The notes under the pieces are model-generated. The model was not told the origin of the DNA and made no database searches. It saw only the letters and a list, made by a program, of their open reading frames with translations. From a virus (Duplodnaviria; Heunggongvirae; Uroviricota; Caudoviricetes), in IMG/VR virus record IMGVR_UViG_2531839665_000022: DNA of 37,232 bases; one strand, given 5' to 3'. Both the position numbers and the translations under genes were made by a program. The first letter of the stretch is position 1. The number at the start of each line of letters is the position of its first letter. Of the stretch, positions 1 to 31,563 are shown piece by piece.

Positions 1-390
1 TTACTCTTTTTTCTCCGTATCTACATCGGGTTCATCAGCAAATAGCTTGCCCTGCATCCGATCCAGTTCTTCTTTTCTTACCCGCTTAACCACGCTGTAG
101 ACCCACTGAAGCGAAACACCAAATTTGCGGGCCAGTTCATGGTGATTACGTCCGTTAAACTCCCTGAAGATTTCCCGGTCGCGCTGACTGACCTTCCATA
201 CCATGCCCATCGGGAAATAAACGTTTTGCCCGCCCCAGACCTGCATCATGCGGTTCGCGACGGCCTGACCAATCTGGTCGGCAATTGCGGGCTCAATATC
301 AATAATCTCGCGAACGGTCTCAGAGGTATGCTGTGCCAGTTCCACCAGGAGTTCCGGCCCTTTACTTCGAAACTGATTCAGGTCGCTCAT
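1..390 (-). CDS. Mor/C-family transcriptional activator (middle/late operon regulator)
   Basis: 129-aa ORF, same length as Mu Mor; C-terminal HTH-like region (GRNHHELARKFGVSLQWVYSVVKR); last gene of the minus-strand early operon, directly after the GemA-like gene as in Mu. Stop codon is at window positions 1-3. Confidence 0.7.
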   Translation of the reverse strand: MSDLNQFRSKGPELLVELAQHTSETVREIIDIEPAIADQIGQAVANRMMQVWGGQNVYFPMGMVWKVSQRDREIFREFNGRNHHELARKFGVSLQWVYSVVKRVRKEELDRMQGKLFADEPDVDTEKKE

Positions 391-3376: not shown

Positions 3377-3907
3377 TTACTGCACATCCTGCTCAAAAGG
3401 AATTATTGAAAAATCCTCAATATCACTTTTTATGGTAATACCGGGAATATTTTTCACGGCGTCCTTTTCATTCAGGATAGCGTCTTTATTTATTTCCTCC
3501 TTTACACGGATAAAGCGCTCAAGCCCCAGACGTCTCAGTAATTCAATAACATTATCCGCCCCACGGATACTGACTGATGGCGGACGGTTTCGCCACTGCA
3601 CCTCGCCGGTGGTGAGGTTAGCGAACTTCACCTTCCCGTTGCCGGTCAGTTCATCACGGTGTGCCTCACACCATGTCTGAATACCGGACTGCAGTTCGGC
3701 CATGCGTTTTTTCAGGCTCTCGGTGAGCGGGGCATAACGTGCGGTGATATCGCCAATGGCGTCATTCATTTCTGTTTCAGCCCTGACCAGTTCACGGTGT
3801 GCGTCACCGAGCAGTCTGATGCCCTCAATGACCTCTTCACGTGTCCCCGGCACCCAGAGTGCTGCTGCGGCCTTGATACGTTTTGCACCTTTTGTACTTT
3901 TTGCCAT
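3377..3907 (-). CDS. gam: Gam-like host-nuclease inhibitor protein
   Basis: 176 aa, collinear with Mu Gam as I recall it: MAK..KRIK.AAA, TEMNDAI..IT, WCEA.RDELT..GKVK.ANL.TG.V.WR.RPPSVSIRG, LGL.RFIR.K.EINK.AIL, GIT.KS.IEDFSIIPFEQ. Confidence 0.85.
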   Translation of the reverse strand: MAKSTKGAKRIKAAAALWVPGTREEVIEGIRLLGDAHRELVRAETEMNDAIGDITARYAPLTESLKKRMAELQSGIQTWCEAHRDELTGNGKVKFANLTTGEVQWRNRPPSVSIRGADNVIELLRRLGLERFIRVKEEINKDAILNEKDAVKNIPGITIKSDIEDFSIIPFEQDVQ

Positions 3908-3934
3908 TTTTTATGATTTCTCCAGTTGTGCTGA

Positions 3935-4204
3935 TTACCACAAAGATTCCGGCCACACGACGCGACAGCCGTGCAGTTCGAAAACGCCCTGACGGAAATA
4001 TCCCCTGTGGTCATGTCCGGTATACAGATAACAGGCCTTTCCCTGCTCAAGCATGCGCATGCAATGCGCACTCCTGGAAACGCGGATGACAGGTTTGTTA
4101 CCCCTGATGGTGATGCTTTGTACATCCGTGTTCGTCGCCTTAAGCGCCATAATGGCTGACTGCACTTTACTGATTTGCTGGTTGATACCTGTGGTGGATT
4201 TCAT
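3935..4204 (-). CDS. hypothetical protein
   Basis: 89-aa ORF between the B-like and Gam-like genes; no recognisable domain. Confidence 0.35.
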   Translation of the reverse strand: MKSTTGINQQISKVQSAIMALKATNTDVQSITIRGNKPVIRVSRSAHCMRMLEQGKACYLYTGHDHRGYFRQGVFELHGCRVVWPESLW

Positions 4205-4206
4205 TA

Positions 4207-5400
4207 TTAAACCCCTTTGACAACGTCAGCGTTGACCTGTGGAACCCCGATTTCAGCGGCCAGATTCATGGCGGCTATTACCAGGTTACTGACGGCCAGC
4301 GGATACAGCAGGCTGACCCTGTTTTTACGATGACTTCCCGGATTGCTCAGGCGGGCACGTATGGCATCCACTGCGCCGGTGTCCATAATGTCCGTCAGTT
4401 GTTTACCGGCCCGTTGCAGTTTGAACGTCAGAAATTCTTCAAGGTGATTGTCCAGAGGCAGAAGTTCGACCACCTCACAGCGCTGAACGACTTCGCGGAC
4501 TTCCATGTTGCGTTCAGACAGTTTTGTCGCCAGTTCCGGCTGGCCAATCAGCACGATGGACAGCAGCTTTTTGAAACCGGACTCCAGCTCAAAAAAGCGT
4601 TTGAGGTGTTTCAGTGTCGGAATGGGCAGACTGTGAGCCTCCTCAATCACCAGAACGTGGCTGAACCCCGCCTGGTTGCTGTCTTTCAGGACGCGATGCA
4701 ACTGGCGAAAGCGGGCGTCCTGACTGCGTCTGATGCTTTCCAGTGGTGCGATGGTACTGATAATGGCTTCGGCAATCGCTGCTGCCTTCAGAGTTTTCCC
4801 TTTCACATCGTTGTCTTCCATAGCGATGATGTATGGCTCGATAACAATCACTGGCGCATTCTCGCGGTTGATACGTTCAGTCAGGTCACGGCGCAGCGTG
4901 GATTTACCCGCACCGGACTCACCGATGACGGCCATAAACCCACCATGACGGGCTGTCTGGTACAACGCCTCACGCACGTAGCGAATGTCTGGTGTGGTGA
5001 ACACATCATCAGAACCCTGCATGGCTTCGTCGGCGAACGGGTCACGGAAAAGACCAAACGCTTTTTTGGTTGCTGGAAATAACACCTGTTTTTTGAGTAA
5101 CATATTCTCTTCCTCACTGAGGCTCGTTTTATCTGTGGTACCCGCTGTACGGGGCGTGGCCGCGCCCTGTACAGCATCAAAACTCTTCGCTGTATCAATC
5201 CCCTGACTTTCCAGCCAGGACGCAAGACGCCGGCGCACTTCTCCGGGGCTGGTGCGGGGCCACGCGTTATGATTCACAATCTGGGCCAGCGTGGCCTCAG
5301 AAACATCGACAGCTCTCGCCACCACCGCCTGTGGAATACGGGCCTCTTTCAGTTGCTGCTTCAGTACCAGCATGTTTCCCTCCTCAGTTGCCGTTAACAA
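4207..5400 (-). CDS. AAA+ ATPase, Mu B-like transposition target-capture protein
   Basis: N-terminal HTH-like segment, Walker A (VIGESGAGKST), Walker B-like (HVLVIEEAHSL); lies immediately after the transposase gene with a 17-bp overlap. Confidence 0.75.
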   Translation of the reverse strand: MLTATEEGNMLVLKQQLKEARIPQAVVARAVDVSEATLAQIVNHNAWPRTSPGEVRRRLASWLESQGIDTAKSFDAVQGAATPRTAGTTDKTSLSEEENMLLKKQVLFPATKKAFGLFRDPFADEAMQGSDDVFTTPDIRYVREALYQTARHGGFMAVIGESGAGKSTLRRDLTERINRENAPVIVIEPYIIAMEDNDVKGKTLKAAAIAEAIISTIAPLESIRRSQDARFRQLHRVLKDSNQAGFSHVLVIEEAHSLPIPTLKHLKRFFELESGFKKLLSIVLIGQPELATKLSERNMEVREVVQRCEVVELLPLDNHLEEFLTFKLQRAGKQLTDIMDTGAVDAIRARLSNPGSHRKNRVSLLYPLAVSNLVIAAMNLAAEIGVPQVNADVVKGV

Positions 5401-9174: not shown

Positions 9175-10182
9175 ATGTCTGAGCAGACCATTGAAGTTAA
9201 ACACGTTGTAGTTCACATTTTAGACAAACAACAAAATGGAGACGCTTCTGAGAGATTGAGTCCTGAAGAAGGTCTAGTTACTGAAGCCTCTCAGCGCCTT
9301 ATAAACGATATTTGTGCAAAATATGCAGGACGCACAGGTAAAGGTTATGGCTATTTTGAAGGCGATACGGATAACTATCCTATGGAACGAATGGCTGGGG
9401 ACTTTCTCGAAGGTGTTGATGATTTCTACCAAAGTTCCTGCCGAATGATGCATCACCTGACGGAACGTTCTCAGCGAGAAAACATGGCTACTGGTGGTTA
9501 TGTTCTTTTTGCAAATATCGTGATAGGACACAATGAACACCTGTTGATAGCTATTGTAAGCGCTACCATTGGGTCCACTGTCACAGATGATTTTAACATC
9601 CAAGATAGTACCTATCTTGATATTGCTAAGCTGCGTATGGCTGGGCGCATTGACTTAACCGCGTGGGAAAGTGGCGCAGAGCGCTATATCAGTTTTCTTA
9701 AGGGGCAAGGTAATGTTTCAAACTATTTTAAACAGTTCCTAGGCTGTAATGATGTCTTAATCGCCAAACGAGAGTCTGAAAAGTTACGTGACGTTTTAAA
9801 AGCATTTGCGGCAGAGAAAGGACTTGACGGCGCTGAAAAAGATGCATTTCTTAAGAGTGCGTTTGAACACTTACATGCACTAAGTAAGGCTGGTGAACCA
9901 CTTAGTCTTGAAACCCTTGTTAATGCCATTTGGCCCCAGGCTCCCGAGGAGTTATCTGGTAAACTTGCTGCTGAAGAGTTGGAGTTATCGGATGGCTTCG
10001 TTCCTGATGGTCGAGTCATTCGGGCTCTGGTATCTTTTAAAGGCAAGTCTAAATATTGGGAACTTAAGTTTGACCGGGAAGGGAAAACTGAAGGCTATAT
10101 TGATTATGATCCGGAAACAAATATTATCACCCTACGTAATGTACCTGAAGAATTTAGGGAAATGTGGATGACTGAGGTTTAA
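9175..10182 (+). CDS. NdpA/YejK-like nucleoid-associated protein homolog
   Basis: 335 aa, same length as E. coli YejK; collinear motifs as I recall YejK: (V/I)HxLDK near the N-terminus, GGYVLFANIV, and RIDLTAWESGAERYISFLKG...FKQFLG matching RIDLTEWE...RYLTFLKG...FFMDFLG. AT-rich codon usage unlike the flanking phage genes. Confidence 0.6.
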   Translation: MSEQTIEVKHVVVHILDKQQNGDASERLSPEEGLVTEASQRLINDICAKYAGRTGKGYGYFEGDTDNYPMERMAGDFLEGVDDFYQSSCRMMHHLTERSQRENMATGGYVLFANIVIGHNEHLLIAIVSATIGSTVTDDFNIQDSTYLDIAKLRMAGRIDLTAWESGAERYISFLKGQGNVSNYFKQFLGCNDVLIAKRESEKLRDVLKAFAAEKGLDGAEKDAFLKSAFEHLHALSKAGEPLSLETLVNAIWPQAPEELSGKLAAEELELSDGFVPDGRVIRALVSFKGKSKYWELKFDREGKTEGYIDYDPETNIITLRNVPEEFREMWMTEV

Positions 10183-10184
10183 TC

Positions 10185-11390
10185 GTGGCGATTTCATTTG
10201 AGATGCTGACAGCTCTGTATCGTCGTATGGAATTCCAAGAGGGGTTTCGTGTCGGTTCGCTGTTGCTCTTAGATCAGTCCGATTGTGATCTGGTTGATAC
10301 TTTGCTTGATGATCCTCGTGAATATGGTCTTTCTATTGATACAGGCACTATCGCTCCAGGTAACACGATCATCCTACGTGTGACGTCACCACGGAGTGGA
10401 CTGGGACTTGTGTTTTCCACCCATGAAAAATTGCTAAATGCTCCAAAGCATCAGTGCCTTGAGCCAGCTAATTACTTCATCCTAGAAACAAAATTTCGTA
10501 ATGATGATGAAGATATCCCCGTTTTCATCAGCAACTACCGGAAGATTCTCGAGTTCGTTAACCTGCTAAAAGAGGCCGCGGCCTACTTTGATAACTCAAC
10601 TTGTCAGTTAGTTTTTCTGAAAAAAGAAGTTATCAAGCTATTACCGCACTTCGCTGCAGAAAATGTACAAAATTTGCAAAGGGAGTATCTTGATAACCTT
10701 ATAGCTTGTTTCAATGATGATACCCATAAGGATCAGAAGCTAGATATTCTGATTGAAAGTATTCAAGCAGTTAGTGATGGAATTGATTCACCTCTAGTAT
10801 TCGCTTATTTACTGGACAATATTCAGCGTCTGCATGAAAAGTTTCTGAAAGGGTATCGTATCTACTCTTCTGGATTCTCTTATGACAAAGTAATGGATCA
10901 ACTGCGTGCTGCAAAAGTCGAAGAAATGGGTAAAATCCACAAAGCGTTTTCAGATATCCAGAACCATATACTTGGCATTCCTGTTGCCTCTGTTATCGTA
11001 GCTACCCAATTCAAAGTGGCTACGAAATGGTCAGGCCAAGGGATAACAAACACAATAATTCTTCTGGGATGCATTTTTGCTGCAACGTTAATCTGGCTGG
11101 CACTTTCGAACCAGATGCAATCTATAAAGGCCTTAGGCGAAGAAATTGAATACAAAGAAAAACAGATTAATAAGGAATATTCCTTCATTAAAGATGACGT
11201 GGCTGGTGTATTTAGCAGTATTTCTGCGCGACTAGACACGCAGAAACGTACGTTCTGGATTATACGTGGTGTTCTAGTTATGGGAATTATTACCGCTATC
11301 ACTGTTTATTTTTGGTACACAAAACCAGCCCTTGACTTCATGCAGTACTTGATTCACTGCATGAAGTCTTACTATTCGGTCAAAAGTTGA
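10185..11390 (+). CDS. hypothetical protein with two C-terminal transmembrane helices
   Basis: 401 aa, starts 3 bp after the NdpA-like stop (operon partner); soluble N-terminal region then TM helices GITNTIILLGCIFAATLIWLALS and FWIIRGVLVMGIITAITVYFWY; AT-rich; no domain I can name. Confidence 0.5.
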   Translation: MAISFEMLTALYRRMEFQEGFRVGSLLLLDQSDCDLVDTLLDDPREYGLSIDTGTIAPGNTIILRVTSPRSGLGLVFSTHEKLLNAPKHQCLEPANYFILETKFRNDDEDIPVFISNYRKILEFVNLLKEAAAYFDNSTCQLVFLKKEVIKLLPHFAAENVQNLQREYLDNLIACFNDDTHKDQKLDILIESIQAVSDGIDSPLVFAYLLDNIQRLHEKFLKGYRIYSSGFSYDKVMDQLRAAKVEEMGKIHKAFSDIQNHILGIPVASVIVATQFKVATKWSGQGITNTIILLGCIFAATLIWLALSNQMQSIKALGEEIEYKEKQINKEYSFIKDDVAGVFSSISARLDTQKRTFWIIRGVLVMGIITAITVYFWYTKPALDFMQYLIHCMKSYYSVKS

Positions 11391-12150
11391 GGATAATGAG
11401 TTCCTTCTTGCGACTGGATTTGCCAGTGATCTTGAGGTTGTAGCTGATATCAACCGACTGAATATTTAGACCGTTGAATGCCTGCCGCATTTCCGGGATA
11501 TCGTTCACCGATATAATCATCTTCCCTTTGATCCTGCGTGCTAAATCTGCCATATGATCATAATTTTCTAGTCCGAACTCCACACCATAACCTTCCGTTC
11601 CCCAGTATGGAGGGTCACAGTAGAACAACGTATGCGGGCGATCATATCGTTCTATGCACTGTTGCCAGTCCATGTGTTCTATGACCGTTCTGGAAAGCCG
11701 CAGGTGTGCCGCTGACAGTTCTTCTTCAATACGCAGCAGGTTGAAGCGTGGCGGGGATATGGTGGAGGTACCAAAGCTGTGCTCCGCCACCTTGCCCCCA
11801 AACGCCTGCTTCTGAAGGTAATAGAACCGTGCTGCACGCTGGATATCCGTCAGTGTTTCTTCCGGGGTGATCTGCAGCCATTTGTAGATCTGCCGGCTGA
11901 CCAGCGCCCATTTGAACTGGCGTACAAATTCTTCCAGATGATGTTTTACCACCCGATACAGGTTCACCAGCTCACCGTTGATATCATTAATGACTTCGAT
12001 CTTGCCGGGTACCTTAAGAAAATAGAGCGCTGCTGCCCCACAAAACGGCTCCACATAACATTCATGCGCCGGAAACAGCGGCAGGATGTGTTTTGCAAGG
12101 CGGCGTTTGCCACCAATCCATGGAACGATGGGTAATGTCTGCATTTTCAT
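11380..12150 (-). CDS. DNA adenine methyltransferase (Dam family)
   Basis: 256 aa; SAM-binding motif EPFCGAAALYF and catalytic DPPY motif (FYCDPPYW); convergent with and overlapping the upstream plus-strand gene by 11 bp. Confidence 0.8.
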   Translation of the reverse strand: MKMQTLPIVPWIGGKRRLAKHILPLFPAHECYVEPFCGAAALYFLKVPGKIEVINDINGELVNLYRVVKHHLEEFVRQFKWALVSRQIYKWLQITPEETLTDIQRAARFYYLQKQAFGGKVAEHSFGTSTISPPRFNLLRIEEELSAAHLRLSRTVIEHMDWQQCIERYDRPHTLFYCDPPYWGTEGYGVEFGLENYDHMADLARRIKGKMIISVNDIPEMRQAFNGLNIQSVDISYNLKITGKSSRKKELIILNF

Positions 12151-12397
12151 AATCTGTAAGCCTTTTACAATTATAAAAAATATGGCAGGCTAGTCTGGTC
12201 TCGCGAGACTGACTGAACCTTGGTCGGCTCACAGCGCATTCCTGTGGGGCGATGGCCAGCCCGGTGTTCGGGTACCGGGCTGGTCGTTCTTTCAAAGCCA
12301 TCATGCAGTGCACGTTTACATCTTCACTATTAACGCTGTTTAAAATCCGTATCCCGCCACATTTGTGATGCTGTCTCCACCAAACGAGGAGACACAC

Positions 12398-12748
12398 ATG
12401 AAAAACCTGAAAAAATTCATTCCCCCTGTTAAAAAAACTCGCCTCAGCGGCTGGATGCTGACCTCAGTGCTGTTGCTGGGCATCATCGCTCTGGTCTCGC
12501 CACAGCAGTTGCCTGTTGTGATCTACAAGCTGGCACTCATCACGCTGGCAGCAGTGCTGGGTTACTGGCTTGACCGTTCGCTCTTCCCCAAAGCCCGTCC
12601 CGGTCAGTACCTGAAACATGACGACAGACTGATGGCTGAAGGGCGTTTCCCTGTGCAGACCGGCCTTCACCTTGTATTTTCTGCTGCGTTAATCCGCCGT
12701 GCACTGATTGTTGCAGCGGTCTGTCTGGCTGTGGCAACAGGACTGTGA
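12398..12748 (+). CDS. putative holin-like membrane protein
   Basis: ATG 12398 preceded by GAGGAGA RBS; 116 aa with 2-3 hydrophobic helices; sits immediately upstream of the endolysin. Confidence 0.45.
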   Translation: MKNLKKFIPPVKKTRLSGWMLTSVLLLGIIALVSPQQLPVVIYKLALITLAAVLGYWLDRSLFPKARPGQYLKHDDRLMAEGRFPVQTGLHLVFSAALIRRALIVAAVCLAVATGL

Positions 12749-19726: not shown

Positions 19727-19854
19727 ATAACCGCCTCCGGTTCACCGCATTGCTTTCCCTGTCCTTCTCCCCTGATGTTTTCTAAAGCAGATTAAAATCG
19801 CCGGGCCTGCATTTCTCACAAACTGTCTCCGACAACATAACGCGGGACAGCAAA

Positions 19855-25677: not shown

Positions 25678-25700
25678 AGGGGCTCCGGCCCCTTCTTTTT
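25678..25700 (+). terminator. rho-independent terminator after the sheath/tube genes
   Basis: AGGGGCTCC-GGCCCCT hairpin followed by TCTTTTT. Confidence 0.6.
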
Positions 25701-25762
25701 AATCCCCTTTAATATCCGTCACGTCCACCGCCAGACATACTGCTCTGAATTTACAAAGGAGT

Positions 25763-31507: not shown

Positions 31508-31563
31508 ACCTTCTTAAACGCCTTTAATATCGGCGCTTACTTCCCGGGGGCAATACTGCCTCC

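Follow-up and report, generated by a model that had tools for sequence, protein, structure and literature searches.

The stretch of DNA analyzed here (IMG/VR record IMGVR_UViG_2531839665_000022, 37,232 nucleotides; hereafter the window) is a BcepMu-like transposable prophage of Escherichia coli. Upstream of its lysis genes lies a leftward gene for an orphan D12-class (Dam-family) N6-adenine DNA methyltransferase (methylase; positions 11380..12150, − strand, 256 residues with an ATG start), which faces away from the holin gene, the first gene of the lysis/late operon (12398..12748, + strand; PF13272, 6e-41). In the interval between these two genes we predict a structured RNA gene of ∼100 nucleotides, divergent from the methylase and with both ends inferred (12198..12296, + strand). 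An earlier note on this DNA had drawn attention to a perfect 12-bp palindrome, GTCTCGCGAGAC, in this interval; the palindrome is present at 12198-12209, where the predicted RNA begins. The methylase is routine, and it is the neighboring RNA that constitutes the finding of interest.

The gene at 11380-12150 is an intact, ordinary orphan D12-class adenine methylase. Its product matched PF02086 with 98.4 bits (cut-off 22; 7e-28) and the NCBIfam Dam-subfamily model TIGR00571 with 116.9 bits (cut-off 114.85), as well as PHROG 56 (4e-100) and the PADLOC model MTase_II (382 bits). Alignment to DpnM and EcoDam revealed both the catalytic DPPY motif (LFYCDPPYWG) and the FxGxG S-adenosylmethionine (SAM)-binding motif (VEPFCGAAALYF). 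The neighboring genes encode a YejK/NA37-like protein, a protein with two transmembrane segments (2-TM), the holin and an SLT endolysin; no restriction gene adjoins the methylase in the window or in the relatives examined, and the enzyme is therefore an orphan, as the earlier note had stated.

The methylase is 88-92% identical to the enzymes of KP12, Phi06_2974B and PhiKM (88% to the copies in ST131 and PhiKM), and homologues of 63-67% identity occur in phages B3, VP882, phiE125 (gp27), phi1026b, KS9 and others. It scored 69 bits against the EcoDam equivalog model, for which the threshold is 441, and is thus not an EcoDam equivalog. We examined the EcoDam residues that contact GATC (K9, L122, R124 and P134); in the HMMER alignment, which is uncertain in the recognition loop, K9, L122 and R124 align to P, K and A. 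Because these contacts are not conserved, the target of the enzyme cannot be deduced from them, and GATC is still allowed. Literature searches yielded no experimental specificity data for phiE125 gp27 or the VP882 methylase. The anti-restriction role suggested in the earlier note is a plausible candidate function. The same type of prophage, with the methylase WP_000783854.1, is present in the ST131 strain EC958; this enzyme is very likely the M.EcoMIV of Forde et al. 2015, the two having been matched by prophage and protein family, not by locus tag. Transcription of M.EcoMIV in EC958 was far below that of dam in LB, too low for a motif to be assigned to it, and no recognition site had been determined for any homologue of >65% identity (PMC4659465).

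A covariance model of the RNA matched the window at 12178-12298 with 95 bits. Its consensus structure comprises four helices: a 5′ hairpin of variable length (hairpin 1), a long-range helix P1, and hairpins 2 and 3 inside P1. In the window, the 5′ strand of P1, GAAC (12215..12218, + strand), pairs with GUUC at 12286-12289 and thereby encloses hairpins 2 and 3. Hairpin 2 (12223..12253, + strand) has the core CUCACAG...CUGUGGG with several G.U pairs. Hairpin 3 (12254..12285, + strand) is a GC-rich stem of 13 bp followed by the pyrimidine-rich 3′ tail GUUCUUUC (12286..12293, + strand), the first four bases of which are the 3′ strand of P1. As modeled, hairpin 3 is the probable intrinsic terminator of the RNA; it was missed by a built-in terminator scan, probably because the scan over-extended the stem with G-T pairs.

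The stem-loop fold of the element at 12170-12300 is far better than those of shuffled sequences (z −4.0), and the segment 12197-12299 folds with −48.7 kcal/mol (z −3.3) into a structure that reproduces the consensus. For 30 diverse copies, RNAalifold found compensatory changes in 22 of 29 pairs. Changes on both sides affect six of the seven pairs of P1, which occurs as GAAC/GUUC (E. coli), GAGC/GCUC, CAGC/GCUG, GGGC/GCCC or GAAGC/GCUUC, and all ten scored pairs of hairpin 3. Invariant sequences of the junction and loops include GCCUUGG, the CUCACAG/CUGUGGG stem and the loop GUGUU..GCAC. Two larger alignments, both fitted to the covariance model built from the 30-copy alignment and therefore leaning toward the modeled structure, gave concordant values. 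Among 83 distinct genome copies, 93.3% of the cells were standard-paired (74.5% in shuffles), 26 of 29 pairs had changed on both sides, and the covariation score was 0.541, compared with 0.211 for shuffles and at most 0.104 for slid partners. The corresponding values for 69 distinct viral-contig copies, an independent sample because they were found by the hairpin-2 pattern alone, were 95.8% (79.7% in shuffles), 24 of 29 pairs, and 0.505 (0.192 in shuffles).

The copies also identify the strand of the element. On the plus strand, G.U combinations outnumber A.C combinations by 123 to 10, which places the RNA on that strand and hence divergent from the methylase. The consensus energy is −36.0 kcal/mol for the plus strand versus −13.9 kcal/mol for the minus strand, and 27 of the 30 copies fold better as plus-strand RNA. 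We had also considered that a structured 5′ untranslated region on the minus strand is the selected RNA; the G.U/A.C count and the consensus energies ruled this out. We consider it very probable that a functional plus-strand RNA gene exists at this locus.

The RNA appears to represent an undescribed family, for which there is neither an Rfam model nor an annotation. When the window and 18 loci were compared with Rfam at both the gathering and a permissive threshold, the only match was a sub-threshold one to ctRNA_pGA1 (RF00236) in phiE125, where the 3′ two-thirds of the copy (L087, 2349-2427, − strand) scored 38.4 bits against the full model, which has a gathering score of 45; the window did not match RF00236 even at E≤10, and neither did the other tested loci. 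The element is not annotated in any of the 40 RefSeq E. coli matches listed, and a small RNA at the locus upstream of the methylase was not found in the literature. VP882 encodes a small RNA, VpdS, of ∼50 nucleotides. Several deposited records have coding sequences over the RNA: an N-terminally over-extended methylase in PhiKM (L001, 3948-4802), and the tiny hypothetical reading frames ORF45/ORF46 in B3 (L086) and gp36 in VP882 (L088). These are probably mis-annotations.

The RNA and the methylase travel together. Matches to the methylase in E. coli genomes typically run 145 bp upstream to window position 12294 and end there, after which the genes differ between prophages. The 131-bp piece 12170-12300 was present in 556 of 5426 complete E. 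coli genomes (∼10%), including the pandemic ST131, and always near full length. Methylase homologues of Serratia, Photorhabdus, Xenorhabdus, Citrobacter, Symbiopectobacterium and Brenneria have diverged copies upstream, and such copies are also found in Burkholderia, Chromobacterium, Iodobacter, Nitrosomonas, Methylophilaceae and a Francisella metagenome-assembled genome (MAG). Of 80 genome loci that encode a methylase homologue, 73 also gave a match to the covariance model, in every case on the other strand and separated by 20-30 nt from the start codon of either the methylase or a Com-like gene. In the window, 28 nt separate the RNA model from the methylase ATG, and they contain no open reading frame (ORF). 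The RNA is also found in the phages B3, VP882 and phiE125, which have unrelated backbones, and no neighboring genes are shared outside Enterobacterales.

Scanning viral contigs for the hairpin-2 pattern, a search in which the methylase was not used, yielded 120 loci, 77 of them positive with the covariance model; the 43 negative loci we take to be chance matches of a 16-base pattern in a collection of this size. Beside 68 of the 77 RNAs lies an adjacent divergent D12 methylase, and four are cut off by a contig end. At one locus (L166) the RNA (1793-1918, + strand) is paired with a non-homologous methylase of the PF01555 family (N6_N4_Mtase; 667-1623, − strand; 147 bits). The cassette is usually situated inside, or at the end of, a co-directional late operon, with the 3′ end of the RNA 0-15 nt from the upstream stop codon; it follows tail or lysis genes in phiE125 and VP882 and separates the tail chaperone and tape-measure genes in B3.

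A zinc-finger gene of the type of Mu com, which encodes a translational activator, intervenes between the RNA and the methylase at ∼18 of the 80 genome loci and in B3 (PF10122, 53-78 bits). The suggestion in the earlier note that the methylase may be a remnant of a mom-like modification function gains real support from B3 and from the roughly one quarter of homologous cassettes in which such a gene directly precedes the methylase. The window itself has no com gene, and its enzyme is not Mom. Two copies in Paludibacterium denitrificans (L062 and L073, ∼3803-4200) have the Com-like ORF in frame with the methylase, an apparent fusion; a third copy from that genome (L072) has them as separate genes. 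Yersinia pekkanenii (L052) and a Pantoea MAG (L071) have methylase homologues without the RNA, which are preceded at ∼3900-4000 by dense GATC clusters, for example four sites in ∼50 nt; by analogy with Mu mom, this suggests a different, methylation-sensitive control. In a Rubrivivax MAG (L055), a tRNA gene (5064-5136, − strand) follows the methylase cassette, which fits a prophage end at a tRNA attachment site.

Immediately upstream of the predicted RNA is an extended −10 element, TGgCAGGCT (12183..12191, + strand), with the family consensus TGnTAGGCT. Its conservation was assessed in 76 distinct genome and 69 distinct viral-contig copies: A(−11) is present in 99% of both sets, T(−7) in 99% and 100%, T(−12) in about 80% of each, G(−14) in 90% and 96%, and T(−15) in 53% and 78%, respectively. 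Lineage variants of the hexamer (TAGAAT, TAAGAT, TAAACT, TACGCT, TAGCCT and TATGAT) share the pattern T-A-N-N-N-T, and the G two bases upstream of the hexamer, often as TG, is almost invariable. A −35-like hexamer, TTTACA (12164..12169, + strand), can be read 16 bp from the −10, where it overlaps the complement of the Shine-Dalgarno region of the methylase; many relatives have TTTnCA at a spacing of 16-17 bp. The motif TGnTAnnnT, seen in 145 distinct copies, is therefore predicted to be an extended −10 promoter on the RNA strand, and modeling from it puts the RNA start at ∼12198, the first base of the palindrome. An alternative in which AGGCU/AGCCU forms the base of hairpin 1 in competition with P1 was largely dropped, since TAGGCT behaves as a −10 hexamer.

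The region upstream of the methylase is shared with the late lysis promoter, as the earlier note had recognized. The rightward lysis promoter has a −10-like hexamer, GATGCT (12367..12372, + strand), and at ∼−42.5 the sequence TTAACGCTGTTTAA (12330..12343), a perfect TTAA-N6-TTAA that is a probable site for a Mor-family activator. Perfect copies of this motif occur in the window only here, before the tail genes (25699..25712) and at 31514-31527; tolerating up to one mismatch raises the count to 17 (7.3 expected), which includes 19782-19795. The three perfect sites and the one at 19782 are all intergenic and upstream of plus-strand late operons (lysis, head, tail and baseplate), and an xAxxCT hexamer follows each of the four after 23-24 nt; GATGCT accordingly aligns with CAAACT, CATACT and AATACT at the other three. 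From this recurrence, TTAA-N6-TTAA is most likely the late-activator binding site, and the four sites are likely to be the complete map of Mor-dependent late promoters in this phage type. The activator site of Mu Mor/C promoters is likewise centered near −43. The presumed binder is the Mor-family late transcription activator encoded at 1..390 (− strand; PHROG 532, 'late transcriptional activator', 2e-45; named 'Mor transcription activator family protein' in the RefSeq annotation of E. coli M-17).

The same site may serve a second promoter of opposite polarity. The hexamer CATGAT (12300..12305, − strand), 23-24 nt to the left of TTAACGCTGTTTAA, is a candidate −10 of a leftward, activator-dependent methylase promoter with a start at ∼12293. 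A C-A-N-N-N-T hexamer at 23-24 nt from TTAA-N6-TTAA is present in the copies of E. coli, Klebsiella, Mixta, Erwinia, Photorhabdus, Xenorhabdus, Symbiopectobacterium and Brenneria, with CATCAT, CATCCT, CAGGAT and CAGTAT among the relatives, and the spacing persists also in cases in which additional genes lie between the module and the holin gene. We infer from this pattern that a leftward late methylase promoter shares the Mor-type site with the lysis promoter. A further feature of the predicted methylase leader (12141-12179, − strand) is that base pairing is possible between the start region AUGAAAA and, upstream of it, the UUUUAUAAU/AUUUUCA motif, the complement of a conserved plus-strand TGAAAAT. 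This pairing would place the Shine-Dalgarno sequence in a loop, and the resulting hairpin may inhibit translation in a manner reminiscent of the mom leader.

On balance, we lean toward a model in which the RNA is an antisense brake that keeps the methylase off until late infection. The methylase would be a late gene, transcribed in the window from the leftward Mor-type promoter (−10 CATGAT, 12305-12300) that shares TTAACGCTGTTTAA with the lysis promoter, and in other phages, such as B3, VP882 and phiE125, by read-through from the late operon. A start at ∼12293 would give the methylase mRNA a leader of ∼143 nt complementary to the whole RNA. The RNA would be made constitutively, also in lysogens, would terminate at hairpin 3, and would act in cis through interference between face-to-face promoters and through RNA duplex formation. 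Stray methylase transcripts would thereby be neutralized until strong late transcription overwhelms the RNA, a logic like that of the multi-layer control of Mu mom. Because no terminator precedes the methylase on the plus strand, the rightward repressor/accessory transcript would add to the antisense pressure; hairpin 3 would also halt this plus-strand transcription ahead of the holin gene and so keep it out of that gene. The reported silence of M.EcoMIV in a lysogen is consistent with such a brake.

Several points weigh against this model, in addition to the lean of the alignments toward the modeled structure. Both RNA ends and both promoters are predictions from the DNA sequence. The bases just after the −10 are complementary to the bases that follow the palindrome, with covariation; a start at 12198 would exclude them from the transcript, so that either the RNA starts a few bases further upstream or this pairing serves the sense leader. 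At the other end, the tail that follows hairpin 3 has few U residues for a terminator and is engaged in P1. Hairpin 1 has only a weak strand asymmetry, 49 copies folding better as the plus and 23 as the minus strand. Its apex is a loop-less palindrome in most lineages, and since an RNA hairpin does not need a loop-less palindrome, an extra role at the DNA level is possible. In B3, where the cassette lies within the tail operon, strong antisense activity would also affect the downstream tail genes. Finally, four of the RNAs in viral contigs have no methylase despite sufficient room.

The last two points bear on the alternative that survives best, namely that the conserved RNA is real and has its main job elsewhere, as a trans-acting regulator of phage or host mRNAs, a protein-binding scaffold or an anti-defense decoy that merely shares the mobile cassette. 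We consider this unlikely, although it is the strongest of the competing explanations. A junction of three helices in which the junction and loop sequences are invariant exceeds in complexity what most cis-antisense RNAs require, the four copies without an adjacent methylase are accounted for, and a purely cis role looks costly in B3, VP882 and phiE125, where the RNA is antisense to the end or middle of late operons. The linkage to the methylase is nevertheless very tight, with a fixed orientation and a constant gap of 20-30 nt to the first start codon of the methylase operon. Moreover, the RNA that is paired with a non-homologous PF01555 methylase points to a methylase-related function and argues against hitch-hiking.

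Beyond the brake itself, one may speculate that the RNA and the orphan methylase, sometimes with Com, form a self-contained, mobile 'RNA-gated epigenetic cassette' that can be inserted into any late operon of unrelated phages. The RNA would then be antitoxin-like, rendering the methylase tolerable or addictive to the host, or its loop-less palindromic 5′ hairpin would double as a switch at the DNA level. We regard this extension as quite unlikely.

The earlier note had interpreted the palindrome as a candidate operator or activator-binding site. On such a reading, a dimeric regulator would bind there and control the methylase promoter, the lysis promoter or both. The window contains eight perfect 12-bp palindromes, compared with 9.1 ± 3.0 in shuffled sequences, and GTCTCGCGAGAC is by itself not above chance. 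Any significance of the palindrome has to come from the comparison with related loci. In the window it begins ∼7 nt after the −10, and nearly all relatives have a hairpin at the corresponding place, with a lineage-specific sequence. We therefore read the palindrome (12198..12209, + strand) as, most likely, the DNA of hairpin 1, the 5′-terminal hairpin of the conserved RNA gene. The reading as an operator draws on the dyad symmetry, which runs through the center without a loop in most lineages and is maintained by at least ten different palindromic centers of 4 nt (CGCG, TCGA, GTAC, CCGG, GGCC, TGCA, GATC, GCGC, ACGT and AGCT), far above the 1 in 16 expected for a free tetraloop. The position of the palindrome would also suit an operator: it covers ∼+1 to +12 relative to the predicted RNA promoter and ∼−35 to −46 relative to a possible TATAAT on the methylase strand (12175-12170). 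However, a search of the phage that allowed up to three mismatches brought out no further copy or half-site of note, and the palindrome does not recur at other promoters; what the late promoters share, before four late operons, is TTAA-N6-TTAA. Its sequence varies among phages with the same backbone and late motif; relatives with that motif carry a different palindrome there or none, and the Photorhabdus copies have a TCAATAA direct repeat in its place. The cassette has no DNA-binding regulator of its own, yet the palindrome is kept in unrelated phages, and positions with G.T are always oriented as wobbles of the plus-strand RNA. An operator is thus very doubtful. The loop-less apex may possibly reflect an additional DNA-level role, RNA dimerization, or quasi-palindrome correction by template switching. 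Two narrower candidates were also rejected: the palindrome as the Mor site was dropped in favor of TTAA-N6-TTAA, and the palindrome as a carrier of the methylase target was ruled out because methylases of 65-90% identity are accompanied by different palindromes, several with centers devoid of adenine.

We find it still less credible that the element is mainly a transcription insulator, whose hairpins stop read-through from the repressor and accessory genes before the holin gene and which does not give rise to a discrete functional RNA. The arrangement in the window is suggestive, with no terminator between the 2-TM gene and the methylase and with hairpin 3 and a U-rich tail on the plus strand just ahead of the lysis promoter. 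In most other phages, however, the element faces the end of a late operon, where this role is inapplicable, and hairpins 1 and 2, P1 and the TGnTAnnnT motif would be superfluous for a terminator. Least probable of all is a conserved DNA-level feature such as a cruciform or a recombination or insertion hotspot that moves the methylase cassette: cassette boundaries do coincide with the end of hairpin 3 or the tail, 0-15 nt from the upstream stop in many phages, and mosaic breakpoints in E. coli relatives lie just beyond the element, but the symmetry of double-stranded DNA predicts no G.T/A.C bias and equal folding of the two strands, in contrast to the observed 123 versus 10 and −36.0 versus −13.9 kcal/mol.

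The surrounding prophage is organized as a leftward early operon (transposase, a MuB-like gene, Gam and Mor), a rightward block of the repressor and two accessory genes, the leftward methylase, and then the rightward genes for lysis, head and tail. Over 1.2 kb around the methylase (11300-12500), the window shares 99.8% identity with a prophage of E. coli M-17 that lies next to tus/rstB; the phages PhiKM, KP12 and Phi06_2974B are related to it. The coding ends of the methylase and of the 2-TM gene (ORF 10185..11390, + strand) overlap tail-to-tail by 11 bp, at exactly 11380..11390, which bears out the convergence with the accessory genes described in the earlier note; the RefSeq annotation of E. 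coli M-17 has the same arrangement of the two genes. A terminator scan of the sequence between them found none. The accessory pair at 9175-11390 (+ strand) consists of a YejK/NA37 nucleoid-associated protein and the 401-residue 2-TM protein. With the NCBIfam anti-phage models DS1_1 and DS1_2 the pair reached 64 and 76 bits, far short of the cut-offs of 330 and 315, and the 2-TM protein has a weak PADLOC KwaA match. The same pair adjoins the methylase in prophages of Mixta (L006) and Brenneria (L022); it is a candidate prophage-borne defense pair.

Well-studied phages that infect Pseudomonas, Vibrio and Burkholderia carry the RNA. If it does gate the methylase, it would explain why prophage methylases are silent in methylome studies of lysogens, would extend the classic Mu mom/Com paradigm by a layer of RNA control, and would define a compact mobile regulatory cassette that is testable by a few point mutations.

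With regard to known systems, the methylase belongs to the same family as M.EcoMIV of the ST131 prophage Phi2, the B3 Dam (ORF48), VP882 gp37 and phiE125 gp27, all of them orphans of temperate phages, and differs from these in nothing material. The locus resembles Mu com-mom in that a DNA-modification gene would be driven by a predicted late Mor/C-type activator promoter, and in that a Com-type gene lies upstream of, and overlaps, the methylase in many cassettes. Divergent transcription is also reported for the Mu mom promoter region (Sun and Hattman 1998). The locus differs in that the enzyme of the window is a SAM-dependent D12 methylase and not Mom, in that the window lacks a com gene, and in that the known mom circuit includes no structured antisense RNA. 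There are no GATC sites in 12151-12400, and control of the Dam/OxyR type is consequently absent.

The closest parallels for the RNA are ctRNA_pGA1 (RF00236), lambda OOP and P22 sar, which are small structured RNAs with a promoter of their own opposite the regulated leader and with stem-loops followed by a terminator, as we predict here. In contrast to these, the present RNA is closed into a junction by an additional long-range helix, and it is associated with a methylase instead of replication or immunity genes; the likeness to ctRNA_pGA1 itself is limited to the phiE125 match below the gathering score, the window and seven other tested loci having none. The late promoters, in turn, share with the Mor/C promoters of Mu a dyad-symmetric site near −43, a poor −35 and an organization into four late transcription units. 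They would depart from the Mu pattern in their probable TTAA-N6-TTAA site and in that one such site may serve two divergent promoters.

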